From positions 1 through 27,442 of the IMG/VR virus record IMGVR_UViG_3300035164_000304: a stretch of DNA of 27,442 nt. One strand, written 5' to 3'. The position numbers and the translations under genes are program-made. Origin of the DNA: a virus (lineage: Duplodnaviria; Caudoviricetes). Of this stretch, positions 8,193 to 27,442 are shown in pieces. Numbering within the stretch: position 1 is the stretch's first letter; each line of letters starts with the position of its first letter. Below the pieces are notes generated by a model that did no database searches, was not told where the DNA came from, and saw only the letters and a program-made list of their open reading frames with translations.

Positions 8193-10382
8193 CTACGAGT
8201 CTCCAGCGGCAACCAGAATGCTAATGAATGTATCAGAAAAACCTTGTTTCCTTAGGTCCCTTATTGTATAAACTAAATCACCAACGGTTATTCCTGTAAT
8301 TTTACCTTCCTTATTTTTATTTGCTCGTACATCAATCTCATTACCAAATAAATTTGCTCTACCGCCTTGAGCAAAACCAAGACTAAATACTTCTCTCCAG
8401 AAACCCGGATCCTGTTCAGCGCTATACCTTTTCATAACCTCAATAAGTTGTTGAGCATAATCTTCTCTATCTGCCTTTGTTGATATTTTTGTTTTTAAAC
8501 TATTTATTAAAGGACTTATTGTATTAAAGTAATTTTCATAATTAACTAATGAACTATCCTCGTCCGTTCTAGCTTTTCGTTTAACCGCATTCAACTCATC
8601 TAATTCTTTTTCGTATGGATCAGAGTAATCAAGTGCTTGTCTTGCCTCTTCCCTAGCTAGACGACGATTCGTTGCAACTTGGTTAGCTATAGTAGTGCCC
8701 TGTGTATTTAACAGACCAGTTTCTATAAATGTACCTATACTTATATTGGTAAGATAAGGAGCAATAGGAGCATTTTTAGGTAAAGTAGCTAAACTAGATA
8801 AAACATATTGACGGACTATATCTATATCTGCATTTTTTTGAGTCATTTTTCTAAAGTCCCCACCTGCTTTTACTAAAGCATCTGTTAAAACTTTATTATC
8901 TTCTTCAGATATATCAATACTATTTACTAATTTAGTTATCCCCTCAATATCATTTGCCTCCACTAATTTAGCAAATTGGTCCACTTGTTCTTTAGTAATA
9001 GAGTTGTTCAATGCTTTTTTAGCTTCGGGTGGTATGACATTACCGTATAGCTTTTCTTTATCTAAGGAACCATCTTCTTTAGTATATTTTTGTAAAAACT
9101 CCTCTGGGCTGGTAGTCCTTAACTCCTCACGTAAAGCTGGGTTTTTAGCTATTAAATCAAAATTAGTTTTAGCTAGTAAAGTCCCATATTTAGTTTTATT
9201 ATCGCCCTGTAAAGACTCTAAATTAGTTCTTAAAGTAGTTCTAATATCAAAATTTCTTGCCTCAGTTACTCCAGCATCAAAACGGTTTTGAGCATTTCTA
9301 AGACTCTCTTTTTCTCTTTTATTAAGTTGTTTGCCTGAAAGCTTTTTTATAATATCTCTATCGCTTATTAATGCATTTGTAAGTCCAGTTTGTTTAGCAC
9401 TAATCGTGGATGTTCTACCAGATTGGCCTTGCCCTTTTCTAGTATACCCAGCTGTGAGTTCTCTTATTTGCTCATCAGTTGCATCATAAGAACCAACGTC
9501 AATAAGATTTTCGCCCGACGTTTGAGGTGAAGTAGGCTGCTCTTGTTTTGCTTCTCCCTCAGTGGCTTCTTTGTTTCCTTCGATTGAGTCACTAAGACCT
9601 GACACTATGTTAAGGACAGTTTCTCTAGGAGTCGTTGGACTATTTATTTGATTGTAACTGTTTAAAACATCATCCATACTTAAATTTCTACTTGTTATTT
9701 GATTCATCATACGTATGCCCTGTTCTGTTCCGGCTGGAGCGGTTTGTAATAGTTTTGCTTTTTTAGCATCGTAAATAACATCTAAATCACTACCTCTAAC
9801 GGTAAAAGCCCCCATAGGCTCCCCACCATCCCTTTGGTTTCTCCCATCCATAGTGATATCGTTTTCTCTAATTGCAAAAGTGCCATCTTCATTAGGCACC
9901 ATAGTAGTTACTGAAGGGTTGTAAACAACCTTACCATCCTCTCCTCGTTGTGCAGTATTTTTTAAATCACCTAAATTTATTCTTTTAAAATCCTCATTCC
10001 CTTCTTGTTTTAAGGCCTCTTTAAACATATCTGGATAAAATTTATTTAATTGATCTTCATTTAAAAAAGGCAAAACGCCCTCTGAAAAATTCAATGTGCC
10101 TTGTTGTTTCTTTTTGTTACGTTCTGCTGCGTAGGTACCAAAATCTCCATAAGCTTCTTCGTTCCAACCCGCTGGTACAACACCAGATTTTTCATACTCT
10201 AATATAACCGCATCCGCTTGCCTTTCCCCCTCTAACATGGAGTTTAGTTCATTTAAAGTTAAGTCTCCCGTTTCTTCTTTAGTATAATTTTTCGCAAAAG
10301 GATTAAAAAGATATTCTAGGAATTGACCCCCACTCATATCTTTATTCAGGGTAAAGGTGCCGTCTTCGTTTCTTATTGCCAT
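8193..10382 (-). CDS. Putative DNA-ejection (internal virion) protein, 729 aa
   Basis: Long ORF coupled to the upstream gene (TAATG overlap at 10382), between the small ejection candidates and the giant protein. No catalytic motif recognised, so the call rests on synteny. Confidence 0.6.
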   Translation of the reverse strand: MAIRNEDGTFTLNKDMSGGQFLEYLFNPFAKNYTKEETGDLTLNELNSMLEGERQADAVILEYEKSGVVPAGWNEEAYGDFGTYAAERNKKKQQGTLNFSEGVLPFLNEDQLNKFYPDMFKEALKQEGNEDFKRINLGDLKNTAQRGEDGKVVYNPSVTTMVPNEDGTFAIRENDITMDGRNQRDGGEPMGAFTVRGSDLDVIYDAKKAKLLQTAPAGTEQGIRMMNQITSRNLSMDDVLNSYNQINSPTTPRETVLNIVSGLSDSIEGNKEATEGEAKQEQPTSPQTSGENLIDVGSYDATDEQIRELTAGYTRKGQGQSGRTSTISAKQTGLTNALISDRDIIKKLSGKQLNKREKESLRNAQNRFDAGVTEARNFDIRTTLRTNLESLQGDNKTKYGTLLAKTNFDLIAKNPALREELRTTSPEEFLQKYTKEDGSLDKEKLYGNVIPPEAKKALNNSITKEQVDQFAKLVEANDIEGITKLVNSIDISEEDNKVLTDALVKAGGDFRKMTQKNADIDIVRQYVLSSLATLPKNAPIAPYLTNISIGTFIETGLLNTQGTTIANQVATNRRLAREEARQALDYSDPYEKELDELNAVKRKARTDEDSSLVNYENYFNTISPLINSLKTKISTKADREDYAQQLIEVMKRYSAEQDPGFWREVFSLGFAQGGRANLFGNEIDVRANKNKEGKITGITVGDLVYTIRDLRKQGFSDTFISILVAAGDS

Positions 10383-21384: not shown

Positions 21385-21927
21385 ATGATACATTTTGGAA
21401 ACATCTTCGCCGATGACAACATCGCCGGTCCTATCTTCGGTGAAGAGTACGAAACCCAACTGCTCAACGCAGTTAAATCTCTTCACTACCGAAGAGAGTT
21501 TGGACGCGGCGTTGCTTGGTTCGGCAAAGATGTAAACTACATCTACAGCGGACGATCGCACTACGCCAATCAGTGGCCTGATTGGTTAACACCAATTATC
21601 AGCCACTTCGGCTACCATGTCGATTACACTGAAACTAAACTAAGCAATGAGTGGAATCATTGCTTAGTTAATCACTACGCTCCCCACGAGCGTCTCGGTT
21701 GGCACCGGGACGACGAAGACTGCCTCGAAGGTAGCCTTCTATCAATCTCCCTCGGGGGGACTGGCGAGTTTAGTTACACCACCAATCGTAACGCTTTCGG
21801 CAATACGATTTGTCTCTCTCACGGAGACTACATCATTGCCGATGGCGATTGGTGGCGCACTAACTGGCACATGGCTAAGAACTGGAGCGAAGACCGCTTC
21901 AATCTTACCTTCAGGCGAGTCAAATAA
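21385..21927 (+). CDS. AlkB-family 2OG-Fe(II) dioxygenase, 180 aa
   Basis: YIYSG, CLVNHY, GWHRDDE (HxD), SISLGG, LSHGD, distal His (NWHMA) and RFNLTFR (RxxxxxR); AAGGAG RBS. Confidence 0.9.
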   Translation: MIHFGNIFADDNIAGPIFGEEYETQLLNAVKSLHYRREFGRGVAWFGKDVNYIYSGRSHYANQWPDWLTPIISHFGYHVDYTETKLSNEWNHCLVNHYAPHERLGWHRDDEDCLEGSLLSISLGGTGEFSYTTNRNAFGNTICLSHGDYIIADGDWWRTNWHMAKNWSEDRFNLTFRRVK

Positions 21928-22037
21928 TGACTCGCCTTCCGGTCTCCGATAAGGACATGGCTAAAGCCATGGCATCAGGTGTTGGCTACAACGCTCACGC
22001 GTTGCACCACAACTTTGAGCGCATACATTTGTTTTAG
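21927..22037 (+). CDS. Small hypothetical protein, 36 aa (MTRLPVSDKDMAK...)
   Basis: TAATG stop/start overlap with the AlkB-like gene; below the track cutoff. Confidence 0.45.
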   Translation: MTRLPVSDKDMAKAMASGVGYNAHALHHNFERIHLF

Positions 22038-22219
22038 ACTAACCTCCAGCAAAAATTAAACTGCAATGCACAGCATTGTCGGGTTCGCCGCAGGCGACCG
22101 CGCGATTGCGCTACCCTCAGTTTAATTTGTAGCTTACGGTTAGTACTATCATGCGCTTACTCTGTTCGCGTCACTACTGACGCGCACTTTCACTTGGCCG
22201 CTCCGCGTCCGGCGTGTAG

Positions 22220-22240
22220 AGCCGAACTCGTTCGGCTTTT
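22220..22240 (+). terminator. Possible rho-independent terminator
   Basis: AGCCGAA-CTCG-TTCGGCT followed by TTT, immediately before the TCTAGTTTAA box. Confidence 0.45.
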
Positions 22241-22287
22241 AAAGTCTAGTTTAAATGGAGTGTAATTAACTTTTTATGGAGATTAAA

Positions 22288-23075: not shown

Positions 23076-23301
23076 TAAAATATATGTTAGCTTTTTAGCT
23101 ATGGGTTTCCTATCGTTTTTAACGATAGGATTAACCCACGGATACTTAGTATTCAATGGTGTTGGTTATATCTCCCTTGGCGATGTCGTGGTCATGGTGG
23201 CTAACGGCTTCGCCTCAGGGTGTTGTTTGTGTCTGTGGATATTCCACGACCCAACTGTGTACTACGCAGTCGAGCCCGAAAGGGTTTCGGCTTCGTGGTA
23301 A
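23068..23301 (+). CDS. Small membrane protein with two hydrophobic helices, 77 aa
   Basis: AGGAG RBS before ATG 23068 (MFSKIYVSFLAMG...); overlaps the upstream stop. Confidence 0.65.
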   Translation: MFSKIYVSFLAMGFLSFLTIGLTHGYLVFNGVGYISLGDVVVMVANGFASGCCLCLWIFHDPTVYYAVEPERVSASW

Positions 23302-23556
23302 TCACTGATCGGGGTGTGCGTGGTGTGCGTGGTGTGCCTAACTACTATCATGTGTGCCGTCGGAGTGTGCCCACCTACTATCATCTTTTTGTTGGGGACC
23401 CCCCACCCCAACGCGCTCGCGCTTCCAGCGCTCGCGGATCTTCGCTCCTTACCAGTCGCTCAGTAGGGAAATCGGAGATTTCCAAATCTAGTTTAATTGA
23501 ATTGGTTGGGAAGTATTTTCCCTTTTTTTAAATATATATATTACACGGAGAATATC

Positions 23557-24469: not shown

Positions 24470-24791
24470 GTGTACCGGGTGTACCACCAGTGTACCACCC
24501 GTTTTACAGCGTGCTGGTACACCTACATCCTTTATTTTTGCTGTGCTTTTTCCAAAAAAGCGCTAAGTGTACCGGGTGTACCACAGGATTTGCGTTAGCT
24601 TTAGTAATCGACCGTGGACCGTGGTTATAGAATCTTAGTTCGATTCGTTAAATAACCGGTACAAATGGTACACCTACCACGAAACCCTGCTAACGCGGGG
24701 CCTGCGGGTGTACCACCTGCTTTTTCTTCGTGGTACACCCAAGCGTGGATCTGTAAACAAATCAATAACTTAGGGTGTACCACGGTGTACC
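24470..24791. repeat. GTGTACC iteron-like cluster (11 copies) with IHF consensus; candidate replication origin
   Basis: Forward copies at 24470, 24479, 24490, 24567, 24576, 24708, 24775 and 24785; inverted copies at 24516, 24667 and 24732. AATCAATAACTTA at 24760-24772 matches WATCAANNNNTTR. Confidence 0.7.
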
Positions 24792-24859
24792 ACAAACGCG
24801 TCTTACCAGCCGCGTTTTATCAATCTAGTTCAATTAAGTGTAATTAATGGAGAAATATT

Positions 24860-25073: not shown

Positions 25074-25820
25074 ATGAGTGAACATTTTGACCCAAGTGAG
25101 CAAGAAACTAAAGAGCTCTTGCCCAAAACTGAGTCTGACATGAGTGACTACACAGAAGACACCATTGCAGATTCTGAAGGTGCAGAACAGCGTTCTGTGA
25201 AAGCATCAATCAGCCTACCTGACTTTTTTCATGTCAACTACAGGCTAGATGACACTGGTAACCCAACATTCAAAGATGATGTGGTTGCTAAAATCATGGC
25301 TATCTTTGACCAAAAGATTGATACCAAACCAACTTTTGCAGAAAAAGAAGGCTATGCACCAGTAGATGAGCAAGTAGCTCAGTTTGAAGAATCAGTCGAC
25401 AACATTGTTGTTGGTATTCAAGAACTGACTATTGTTGACCCACAGTCAACTGGCTTGTCTTTCTTGCAACTATGCACCAGAACATGGGCAGAGTTTGCAA
25501 GCATCTCTTACGATTATCAAACAGCTATGGCTAAAGCAGGCGATGAAATCCCTGACTGGTTGCTCGAGCGTGAACAAAAGATGTTCGACCTTGGTCGTAA
25601 GGCAAGAATGATGTCTATGGCTCTCAAAGCACTAGACCATTCGTTTGGCTTGAAAGAAGTTTCAATCCAAAGAAACAGAGTTCAATCAGCAGTTGAGCAA
25701 AGATTGCAAAGACTTGCTGAATGGAATTTCAAACAGTATGCAGATACTTCTGGTAAAACAGCACAAAAACTTAATGGTGCGACCAAAGAACATATGCAAA
25801 CTATGTTTGATAACGCGTAA
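25074..25820 (+). CDS. Hypothetical helical protein, 248 aa
   Basis: AGGAG RBS and long ORF; no family recognised. Confidence 0.8.
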   Translation: MSEHFDPSEQETKELLPKTESDMSDYTEDTIADSEGAEQRSVKASISLPDFFHVNYRLDDTGNPTFKDDVVAKIMAIFDQKIDTKPTFAEKEGYAPVDEQVAQFEESVDNIVVGIQELTIVDPQSTGLSFLQLCTRTWAEFASISYDYQTAMAKAGDEIPDWLLEREQKMFDLGRKARMMSMALKALDHSFGLKEVSIQRNRVQSAVEQRLQRLAEWNFKQYADTSGKTAQKLNGATKEHMQTMFDNA

Positions 25821-25875
25821 GCGTTACAAAGTCCTAGCTAGTCTTATCATTGTCTGAACGATTCGTCCTAGCTAG

Positions 25876-26070
25876 GCACAGAATTCGACTCTAAAGTTGT
25901 AAAAGTCGAGTCCTGAAAGAGTGAGTCGAACAGTTCTCGCTCACATTGAACTGCCAAAATGCTCTTCAGGATTCGCACAGAATTCGGCTCATTTATCCAC
26001 AAGTCGAAGTCTAAGTAGGGAGCCGAATAGGTCCAAATATACCTTTTCATAACTACTTAGGCTTCGCATA
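25876..26070 (+). ncRNA. Candidate structured RNA: two tandem H-type pseudoknots
   Basis: Two units of about 95 nt begin with GCACAGAATTCG and share the same pairing topology with compensatory changes; G-U pairs favour the plus strand. Confidence 0.55.
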
Positions 26071-26085
26071 AACATAGGAGAAAAT

Positions 26086-26241
26086 ATGCATCGTAGCAAT
26101 CTACCAAGACCTTTTCGCAAAGGCGCAAGAACTGGCGACCGCAAGGTTATTTCATCAACCATAGTCAACGGTAAGACTGTGCAACAACAAGTTGTTTACT
26201 GTGCTAACGGCCAGTCAATTACCCGACACGAAAAGAAGTAG
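26086..26241 (+). CDS. Small basic protein, 51 aa (MHRSNLPRPFRKG...)
   Basis: AGGAG RBS 5 nt upstream; below the track cutoff. Confidence 0.6.
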   Translation: MHRSNLPRPFRKGARTGDRKVISSTIVNGKTVQQQVVYCANGQSITRHEKK

Positions 26242-26565
26242 TTTTTTTGTGTGTGCCGTGCTCGTACAAACTAAATCTCGGCGATGCCCGCGCCAAAGCT
26301 CCGCTTTGTCAGCTACATCGCCTCGACGCTTCCGGCCATCCTTTGGGCACCGCACTGCGTGCGTGCCGTCGGATGCCTTCAGCGGTTTGTACCTTCGCCC
26401 GCTCGTGGGCCGTGGACTTCGCAAAAAATACGCCGACACGAACGGCGTATCTTTTTGCTGAACTTGTGCGACAAGTTAGTAAACAAAATTTAATTAAGTA
26501 TTTCGCTCGGTGCAAATCTGAGATTTGCACCCTCGCGGAGAGTATTTATATGTAGGAGTAAAATT

Positions 26566-26817
26566 ATGTCATTTTTACAAAAATTATTACCTAGTAGATT
26601 AAGTATATTTAATAAATTAGGAGCTATTATGGCTACAAGAATGTTTAGAGCTACTTTTGTAGATTCTTTTTCACAAAATACTATTGTGGTGGAGTTTGAA
26701 GCTCCATTTCCAGTAGATGAGCAAGTTGATTATAAGAAACTTGCGACCCAAAGGTTGGGTGAAATGATACGAAAAGACTTAGTCAAGATTCGTGATATTG
26801 AGCCCATTGAAATATAA
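26566..26817 (+). CDS. Hypothetical protein (83 aa, or 62 aa from ATG 26629)
   Basis: Both in-frame ATGs are preceded by TAGGAG. Confidence 0.65.
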   Translation: MSFLQKLLPSRLSIFNKLGAIMATRMFRATFVDSFSQNTIVVEFEAPFPVDEQVDYKKLATQRLGEMIRKDLVKIRDIEPIEI

Positions 26818-26838
26818 CTATTTGATAAGAGGAGTACT

Positions 26839-27442
26839 ATGTCAGATACAACAACAATGCAGACTGTTACAGCAACAGATCTCAAACAGGAGATACGCGA
26901 TAACATGCGTATCGGACTAAACACTATGATCTGGGGCGGACCCGGTATCGGTAAATCTGAGATTCCTCAGCAAGTCGCTGATGAACTCAACATACCGTTG
27001 CTAGATTTTCGTGCCAATCTATTCGACCCTGTCGATGTTCGTGGTATACCACGAGTCATTGACAGTGAAACATATGGTGCGATGACCTCGTGGGCTCCAC
27101 CAGATATTTTCCCTACCGAAGAAACGCACGGCCCTCGTGGTTTGTTCATGATTGACGAACTGCCAACGGCGCCACCTGCTACACAGAATGCGTTTCTACA
27201 ACTTCTACTAACTCGTCAGGTTGGTAATTACAAAATGCCTGATGGTTGGTCATGTCTTGCTGCAGGTAATCGTCTAACTGACGGTGCCTCAGTCTACCAA
27301 ATGCCCTCACCTGTAAGAAACAGACTGATGCATTACGAACTCGAACCTAGCTTGGACGCTTGGTGCGAGTGGGCGCTAAAGAATGAAGTCAATACTACTT
27401 TGGTTTCTTTCATGCGTTACCGTCCTAACCTTTTGTACAGTT
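26839..27442 (+). CDS. MoxR-like AAA+ ATPase (N4 gp24-like), truncated by the window
   Basis: GAGGAG RBS; translation MSDTTT...WGGPGIGKS (Walker A)...DPVDVRGIP...LFMIDEL (Walker B)...AAGNR...VRNRL (Arg finger). Not in the track because no stop lies in the window. Confidence 0.9.
   Translation, partial: MSDTTTMQTVTATDLKQEIRDNMRIGLNTMIWGGPGIGKSEIPQQVADELNIPLLDFRANLFDPVDVRGIPRVIDSETYGAMTSWAPPDIFPTEETHGPRGLFMIDELPTAPPATQNAFLQLLLTRQVGNYKMPDGWSCLAAGNRLTDGASVYQMPSPVRNRLMHYELEPSLDAWCEWALKNEVNTTLVSFMRYRPNLLYS

Follow-up and report, generated by a model that had tools for sequence, protein, structure and literature searches.

What are the two strongly folded elements that lie one behind the other near the right end of virus record IMGVR_UViG_3300035164_000304, and what could they do for the phage? 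A sequence-only reading of this DNA had taken them for tandem covarying pseudoknots and for a candidate novel noncoding RNA array on the plus strand. That description stands: the pseudoknots covary, their G–U pairs fit the plus strand, and no Rfam family matches them. The structure and the modularity of the array are well supported, and its processing into separate RNAs is a reasonable inference. By the window we mean the whole stretch of DNA analysed, which is the entire virus record of 27.4 kb.

Setting of the array in the early region

The virion genes of the window run leftwards and the early genes rightwards. The major capsid protein is nearest to those of Pseudomonas phages KPP25 and phiR18 (54%), and the RNA runs that contain the region are mostly marine. 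The phage is a KPP25-like marine podophage, and the array lies in its early transcript, behind a gene for a 248-aa protein (Table 1). The early arm also encodes an AlkB-like 2OG-Fe(II) oxygenase (21385-21927) and a MoxR-like AAA ATPase (26839-27441). Three intergenic stretches (21930-22270, 23300-23490 and 26245-26480) are GC-rich and fold strongly; the last of these is conserved among close relatives and has a terminator at its end. A gene-free stretch at 24480-24800 carries a cluster of direct and inverted GGTACACC/GTGTACCAC repeats. Its position fits the repeat-rich gap of KPP25, and it is possibly an origin or a genome terminus.

The 248-aa protein has 257 homologues, with none in genome contigs and none in the cultured phages searched. 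Pfam and PHROG place it in no family, and Atlas and Foldseek return no match. A fold search gives only a generic helical hairpin, in which TasH comes 26th (Z 8.4) in a list of unrelated coiled coils, and residues 140-198 match a CARF model of PADLOC weakly (E 5.7e-5). Cassettes of the kind described below also occur after an SSB-like gene with no 248-aa gene within about 2 kb. The 248-aa gene is context for the cassettes and is not required. The 51-aa ORF downstream of the array has no family in Pfam, PHROG or PADLOC searches. It is present without a preceding pseudoknot in two related loci (L014/L172), and the pseudoknot units precede other genes in other phages; the ORF and the pseudoknots are not coupled.

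No convincing promoter was found for the array (one 9-of-12 match; three matches in the region versus 4.9 by chance), and there is no terminator inside it or before the next ORF. Therefore, its transcription is probably by read-through from the 248-aa gene. RNA-library contigs, which show neither strand nor ends and could derive from DNA, cover the units in two of four runs, and one of them joins the end of the 248-aa gene to unit 2. A gap in their cover at 26132-26871 is not counted as evidence.

Table 1. Features of the array and its flanks in window coordinates.
Feature	Position	Strand	Remarks
248-aa early gene	25074..25820	+	array in its 3' untranslated region
Hairpin cassette	25829..25878	+	overlooked by the sequence-only reading; frame match; same loop family in relatives
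Hairpin cassette, AAGU foot	25829-25832	+	
Hairpin cassette, stem	25833-25841/25868-25876	+	9 bp; 26-nt U-rich loop; CA follows
Linker 1	25879..25885	+	RNase E-like site G25881-A25882 ^ A-U-U, predicted from sequence and linker census
Pseudoknot cassette type 1 (unit 1)	25884..25977	+	length 94 nt, counted from P1 through CA; seen at 9 of the 81 loci
Unit 1, P1	25884-25891/25923-25930	+	
Unit 1, AAGU	25903-25906	+	
Unit 1, P2	25907-25921/25962-25975	+	14 bp and one bulged A
Unit 1, P3	25931-25936/25948-25953	+	
Unit 1, CA	25976-25977	+	
Linker 2	25978..25984	+	RNase E-like site G25980-A25981 ^ A-U-U, predicted from sequence and linker census
Pseudoknot cassette type 2 (unit 2)	25983..26068	+	length 86 nt, counted from P1 through CA; seen at 22 of the 81 loci and also in a second group of phages
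Unit 2, P1	25983-25990/26020-26027	+	9 bp counting the flanking A-U
Unit 2, AAGU	26001-26004	+	
Unit 2, P2	26005-26018/26053-26066	+	
Unit 2, P3	26029-26032/26041-26044	+	CAU in single-stranded stretch of the unit
Unit 2, CA	26067-26068	+	
RBS and 51-aa ORF	26075..26241 (ORF 26086-26241)	+	downstream of unit 2, RBS about 10 nt after it

Structure and covariation of the two units

Both pseudoknots are present as proposed, with every stem in its place. They are the only two of such strength in the 27-kb window when both strands are searched, none appears in six dinucleotide shuffles, and the 255-nt region folds with a z of -4.9, P1 left out. The flanks that the sequence-only reading had described as shared, AAGU before P2 and CA after it, are found in both units. 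It had also placed the head of each unit at a common start, GCACAGAAU. On this point its unit borders have to be redrawn around the two pseudoknots, as the common start consists of the linker and, before it, the 3' foot that ends the preceding cassette.

Twenty units from the window and its relatives were aligned with MAFFT. P1 is 97.5% paired and P2 96.8%, and 94.8% of all cells pair, in an alignment that misregisters the bulge and the P3 of the unit-1 types. Thirteen pairs change on both sides (two in P1, eight in P2 and three in P3), which bears out over more units the observation that the stems differ with their pairing kept. None of 500 shuffles matches the alignment in paired share, in the number of two-sided pairs or in covariation score, a control that is inflated by the relatedness of the units. 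P3 is kept as a hairpin of 4-7 bp, and its sequence differs between the types. A rival hairpin, formed by the 5' strand of P1 with AGUCGA, is 99% compatible with the alignment but shows no two-sided change, and P1 is therefore the supported pairing. The 16 G–U cells in P1 and P2 fit a plus-strand RNA, as had been claimed; a count of 23 G–U versus one A–C is biased by the selection of stems and is not proof of the strand.

The absence of any Rfam match in the window at the gathering score supports the novelty of the RNA. Six weak matches appear at E values up to 10, all far under their cut-offs, and no array cassette was matched when 38 related loci were scanned. The RNA is undescribed in the literature we searched; judging by the accessible text of PMC10690425, it may sit among the unnamed candidates of that catalogue of viral structured RNAs. 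Arrays of cassettes made of RNA alone and built on a constant foot are also undescribed there, most subscription papers lying outside the search, and the accessible part of an editorial on phage countermeasures (PMC13728456) holds nothing comparable.

A shuffled system of framed cassettes

The two units and a hairpin just upstream are built on a common frame, which consists of AAGU, a stem with a closing C–G pair, CA, and an A/U-rich linker. The stem varies from 7 to 16 bp across cassettes and surrounds a variable payload of 5 to >50 nt. The loop family of the upstream hairpin recurs in relatives whose 248-aa proteins are 57-94% identical to that of the window. In the pseudoknot units, this frame is extended by a leader whose pairing with the loop forms P1, and by an inner hairpin, P3; the tandem pseudoknots of the window are one arrangement within a wider shuffled cassette system. 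The frame may resemble the end hairpins of IS200/IS605, hairpin-ribozyme substrates, Cas13 repeats and group II intron D5.

The commonest linker includes GA^AUU, and the RNase E consensus is RN^WUU according to the accessible text of PMC5222698. Of 65 distinct cassettes, which are not independent of one another, 37 have a site of this form no more than 8 nt from the foot, versus 20.5 in shuffled tails (0 of 2000). The sequence-only reading had counted processed RNAs among its proposals, and we judge processing probable, with the positions of cleavage taken from these linker sites. The array would be transcribed by read-through from the 248-aa gene, and host RNase E would cut the A/U-rich linkers at GA^AUU. 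The closing stem, plus P1 in the pseudoknot units, would clamp the ends, and stable RNAs of 50-100 nt would be freed. After a cut in the linker, P1 would start a single base inside the new 5' end, which it could then shield. Recombination between the repeated feet would shuffle the cassettes.

The 248-aa gene was found at 132 loci; we compared the best 80 of these with the window, which makes 81 loci, some of them cut short by contig ends. Framed cassettes occur in 34 of the 81, and 26 different arrangements are seen, each with one to six units. A pseudoknot unit is present in 26 loci, and the two types are adjacent in only two, the window and L174. The 47 loci without a framed cassette, a few of them incomplete at contig ends, indicate that the array is dispensable. 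Which cassettes a locus has is not predicted by the tree of the 248-aa protein next to them. L174, with a 248-aa protein 59% identical to that of the window, has the same arrangement, and L160, at 98% identity, has a different one of six cassettes. The region is modular in eighteen close relatives. In L234 and L160, up to six different cassettes follow one another without an intervening gene or RBS. As a rule, the type-2 unit closes its array and adjoins an RBS, and some terminal frames end in terminator-like U runs. It is clear that gain, loss and reordering of cassettes have taken place, and that unrelated phages have cassettes in common.

In more distant relatives, the slot behind the 248-aa gene holds either a plain terminator or other structured RNAs, among which are several small pseudoknots. 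One other pseudoknot in this slot covaries over eight sequences. A second pseudoknot cassette, without the frame and designated type C, is found within the same arrays in L160, L161, L166, L167, L183, L185, L202 and L234 (~2256-2360); its stem 2 covaries, and its start is on RNA contigs of two runs. Other small structured RNAs follow the 248-aa gene in L190-L201, L203-L209, L213-L216, L219, L221 and L235. They include hairpins whose loop resembles GAUGAAAAG and short H-type pseudoknots near the size of type III antitoxins, and Rfam matched none of them in the 18 loci scanned. A further two-cassette array lies upstream in the early region of L008 (480-600).

With the cassette system in view, two of the functions that had been suggested for the pseudoknots, namely self-cleaving ribozymes and a tandem riboswitch for the 51-aa ORF, appear very unlikely. 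A compact pseudoknot fold, invariant bases around AAGUCGA and UCGCA, and an RBS so soon after unit 2 speak for such a function, but no Rfam class matches even at E 10, and the invariant bases belong to a frame common to plain hairpins. Since the same frame closes simple hairpins with loops of 5-6 nt, a new ribozyme is not to be expected. A tandem riboswitch is at odds with an unpaired RBS, with a downstream gene that varies, with the 51-aa ORF being found without pseudoknots, and with the rarity of adjacent units.

The cassettes are not confined to relatives of the 248-aa gene. The covariance-model search envisaged by the sequence-only reading found type-2-like units in a second phage group and did not list unit 1 of the window. 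The model (R1) was built without P1 and with P3 one column off, and it probably missed unit 1 because of its overlap with unit 2. In the second group (L035, L036, L110, L123, L152 and L159), an SSB-like gene is followed by hairpin cassettes and by units resembling type 2, and the linkers are the same. A third phage type (L092) has a cassette almost identical to that of L014, and near-identical loops are found across the L035/L110/L159 group and the L003/L030 group. These near-identical loops in different phage types suggest a shared host-side partner.

The bare frame pattern occurs in at least 119 viral loci versus 9 for a scrambled-flank control, and stems of at least 7 bp are present in 91 of the frame loci listed versus 3 of the 9 control loci. 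By our reading, the frame loci fall into about 19 unrelated contexts, and a common function is not required. L080 (IMGVR_UViG_3300038825_001608) has seven AAGUCC...GGCA frames between small genes, each followed by an AAUUU-like tail and mostly then by a repeated leader and an RBS. In L143, a frame ends 7 nt 5' of a tRNA-Met. In L075 (2001-2050), the frame encloses an abiF RNA (Rfam RF03085, 44.6 bits, cut-off 37) located between the tail tube and tail chaperone genes. No Abi_2 gene was found in that record, which is 44% complete, and the match makes the framed abiF RNA a candidate AbiF antitoxin mimic. Among bacteria, abiF RNA matches occur in 8 of 151 genomes, and the frame is absent from all of the loci inspected, 4 of the 9 matched.

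Other searches were negative within their scope. The unit model matched none of 151 Gammaproteobacteria genomes and a sister pseudoknot pattern none of 401 proteobacterial genomes, both run without a positive control. At the DNA level, there is no match in 50,697 phage records, and no frame was found in the parts examined of KPP25 (44 of 64 kb) and phiA008 (50 of 65 kb). A loose pseudoknot pattern gave at least 120 loci, mostly chance, with no new group among the matches listed. No host candidate emerged from nine small genomes sampled.

Possible functions of the array

Our best explanation is that the array is a polycistronic precursor processed into small RNAs that act in trans, in the likeliest case as decoys for defence proteins or RNA-binding proteins of the host. 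We hold this tentatively, at somewhat less than an even chance. Because conserved payloads move between unrelated phages, the RNAs appear to act in trans on something in a shared host. Decoys or mimics are ranked first since the slot attracts many pseudoknots, the shape of P3 is conserved, the frame is found around an abiF RNA, and tests of antisense pairing were mostly negative. The least certain step is that the freed RNAs would act in trans by binding host RNA-binding proteins as decoys or mimics. Their most likely targets would be RNA-controlled defence nucleases or translation-related factors, and the array would then be the RNA counterpart of a variable anti-defence gene cluster. The decoy role that the sequence-only reading had raised is thus plausible and unproven. 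Several points weigh against it. The genomes searched yielded no host, no partner protein and no bacterial template RNA, and the abiF case is a single unrelated phage with the incomplete record described above. In L080, the frame stands 5' of single genes seven times, as a cis element would, and many loops are rich in U and lack structure, as would be equally fitting for antisense RNAs. The CAU of the type-2 unit lies in the context UCAUAA, the same as in the anticodon loop of the L143 tRNA-Met, and so a tRNA-Met-like bait is also possible.

The cassettes could instead be antisense guides on a constant scaffold, in the manner of the C4 RNA of phage P1 or the CI RNA of phage P4, with loops that pair with host mRNAs and with the pseudoknot units directed to start codons through CAU. 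This is somewhat unlikely. The trinucleotide CAU is in loop 3 of all 24 parsed units (25 of 26 in a fuller listing), and in the antisense direction most type-1 loops correspond to a start codon and three codons in register ending in Asn, and the type-2 loops to Met-Lys-Arg. CCU is enriched in the loops (16 versus 9.1 of 35 loop families, p 0.002, as one of 14 motifs tested), and purine tracts resembling a Shine–Dalgarno sequence on the loops' own strand are rarer (0.3 versus 2.9). However, the combination of Shine–Dalgarno sequence and start codon is not enriched in the antisense direction (3.0 versus 3.1 of 29 families), and neither is CAU when all loop families are taken together (12 versus 11.5). 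P3 stays a hairpin through its changes of sequence, and some variants, in the antisense direction, run into in-frame stops. The complement of the unit-2 loop gives 56 scattered matches in metagenomes with no dominant gene, and in a 14-base scan for viral targets, only the cassette itself extends well among the matches listed.

One candidate target within the phage itself was tried and rejected. Over 16 nt, the unit-2 loop is perfectly complementary to positions 8423-8438 of the window, in a 729-aa virion gene. A self-complement of this length was reached by 2 of 3000 shuffles and 7 of 1977 genomic controls, and it was found post hoc among 59 loops. Five relatives were checked, and the site is missing from the homologous gene in the two that have the gene, just one of which carries a type-2 unit. 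On account of this absence, the match is treated as chance.

Alternatively, the frames could be cis elements, that is, processing or stabilising signals of the early mRNA and recombination joints, with the pseudoknots as nuclease blocks that set cistron levels. Blocking of nucleases had been among the first suggestions, and we regard the cis explanation as unlikely. The single L080 locus with its seven frames between small genes, the frame before the L143 tRNA, the terminal frames with terminator-like U runs and the usual place of the type-2 unit, last and next to an RBS, are what it would predict. Against it, as many as six cassettes can stand in a row with neither gene nor RBS between them (L234, L160), and loops of 13-52 nt are conserved and common to unrelated phages, whereas simple blocking would not call for a conserved loop. 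The unit also has no convincing promoter, unlike the PeSLs, which are defined by one in the accessible text of PMC2839356, a PeSL cassette combining a sigma-70 promoter, a stem-loop and a Shine–Dalgarno sequence ahead of one gene. The same text describes PeSLs as intergenic stem-loops in the variable early regions of T4-type phages that act as shuffling joints. The cassettes are like them in being repeated stem-loops at shuffled joints. They differ in that the unit is without promoter or Shine–Dalgarno sequence, and in that the RNA itself is shuffled rather than a gene between the elements.

The units might also be mimics of Y RNAs that catch host Ro60 through a bulged helix at the foot. We consider this extremely unlikely. 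In unit 2, GUCGAAG fits the GNCGAAN0-1G motif proposed for Ro60 binding in the accessible part of PMC4201824, and the size (80-130 nt), the long stem and the large loop resemble the YrlA and YrlB RNAs described there. However, the motif is short, and unit 1, the hairpin cassettes and other cassettes lack it. No tRNA-like module and no YrlA match came from Rfam and tRNA-type searches of the window, and the 3' strands of the YrlA alignment differ. A Y RNA would be expected to have a Ro60 gene within 4 kb. There is no Ro60 gene or TROVE family among the proteins scanned, including those adjacent to the array, in a window that ends 1.4 kb downstream.

Among known systems, a close comparison is with the type III antitoxins. 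Their repeat unit is about 35-57 nt long and of one repeated type, and phage phiTE reportedly carries pseudo-ToxI mimics. Like the antitoxin RNAs ToxI, CptI and TenpI, the units are tandem H-type pseudoknots with an A-containing loop 3 and would be cut from one precursor. Unlike these RNAs, the cassettes have no terminator, no toxin gene behind them and no Rfam match, and the pseudoknot units have an inner hairpin. The likeness to type III antitoxins drawn by the sequence-only reading does not extend to membership: the units are about 90-100 nt long with a 14-bp stem, they are mixed with cassettes that are not pseudoknots, and the ORFs downstream match no toxin family in Pfam, PHROG or PADLOC. 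The cassettes of the window also differ from the abiF RNA (RF03085), the antitoxin of AbiF, in matching no abiF model. In differing from each other, the two units also resemble the TenpI antitoxins, whose repeats may be non-identical according to the accessible portions of PMC12283969 and PMC13682666.

Two other kinds of RNA share the combination of constant and variable parts. The C4 RNA of phage P1 and the CI RNA of phage P4 are processed antisense RNAs in which a loop pairs with sequence just upstream. Like them, the cassettes combine a scaffold that stays constant with loops that vary, and would be small RNAs cut from a longer phage transcript, as predicted here from the linkers. Unlike them, the cassettes match no C4-type model in Rfam, are many to an array, yielded no target gene in the scans, and belong to a lytic-type early region. 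TIGR-Tas systems consist of a Tas protein with a Nop domain and of box C/D repeats with spacers of fixed length. As in TIGR-Tas and CRISPR arrays, constant and variable parts alternate behind a protein gene and are probably processed. In contrast to both, the variable part is inside the stem and ranges in length from a few to dozens of nucleotides, there is no box C/D or CRISPR repeat, and a family search of the 248-aa protein found no match to the Nop family.

More generally, phages may keep RNA-only accessory islands, in which exchangeable small RNAs with different payloads are carried on one host-processed scaffold and traded between unrelated phages. We regard this as possible and rather doubtful as yet, and the same applies to the particular contents it would have: a scaffold of AAGU-stem-CA with an RNase E site, and as payload an antitoxin mimic, a pseudoknot decoy or an antisense loop. 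To our knowledge, the phage RNA counter-measures described so far (antitoxin mimics, RNA anti-CRISPRs and C4-type antisense RNAs) are single families with one target. If the islands exist, a constant scaffold with many payloads would be a new layer of the arms race that is invisible to protein-based annotation, and the two pseudoknots would be a lead to host factors or defence systems of marine bacteria that are controlled by RNA and have yet to be described. If the frames act in cis instead, they would still be an undescribed and widespread RNA-processing signal of phages. The frame is a handle for finding such RNAs in many phages, and the cassettes are small enough for direct tests.

Framed hairpins were also seen in two settings apart from these arrays. 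In Pasteurellaceae elements and prophages (L044, L089, L255, L261, L271, L279, L281 and L282), the order is a gene for an ibs-like hydrophobic peptide of 18-19 aa, the framed hairpin, a complement of the peptide's RBS, and a gene for a small DNA-binding protein; from this order, the loci are probable type I toxin–antitoxin systems. In one Elusimicrobiaceae genome, L249, L252, L259 and nine more loci are copies of a short element with the framed hairpin in its middle and with terminal hairpins that we presume to be like IS200/IS605 ends.
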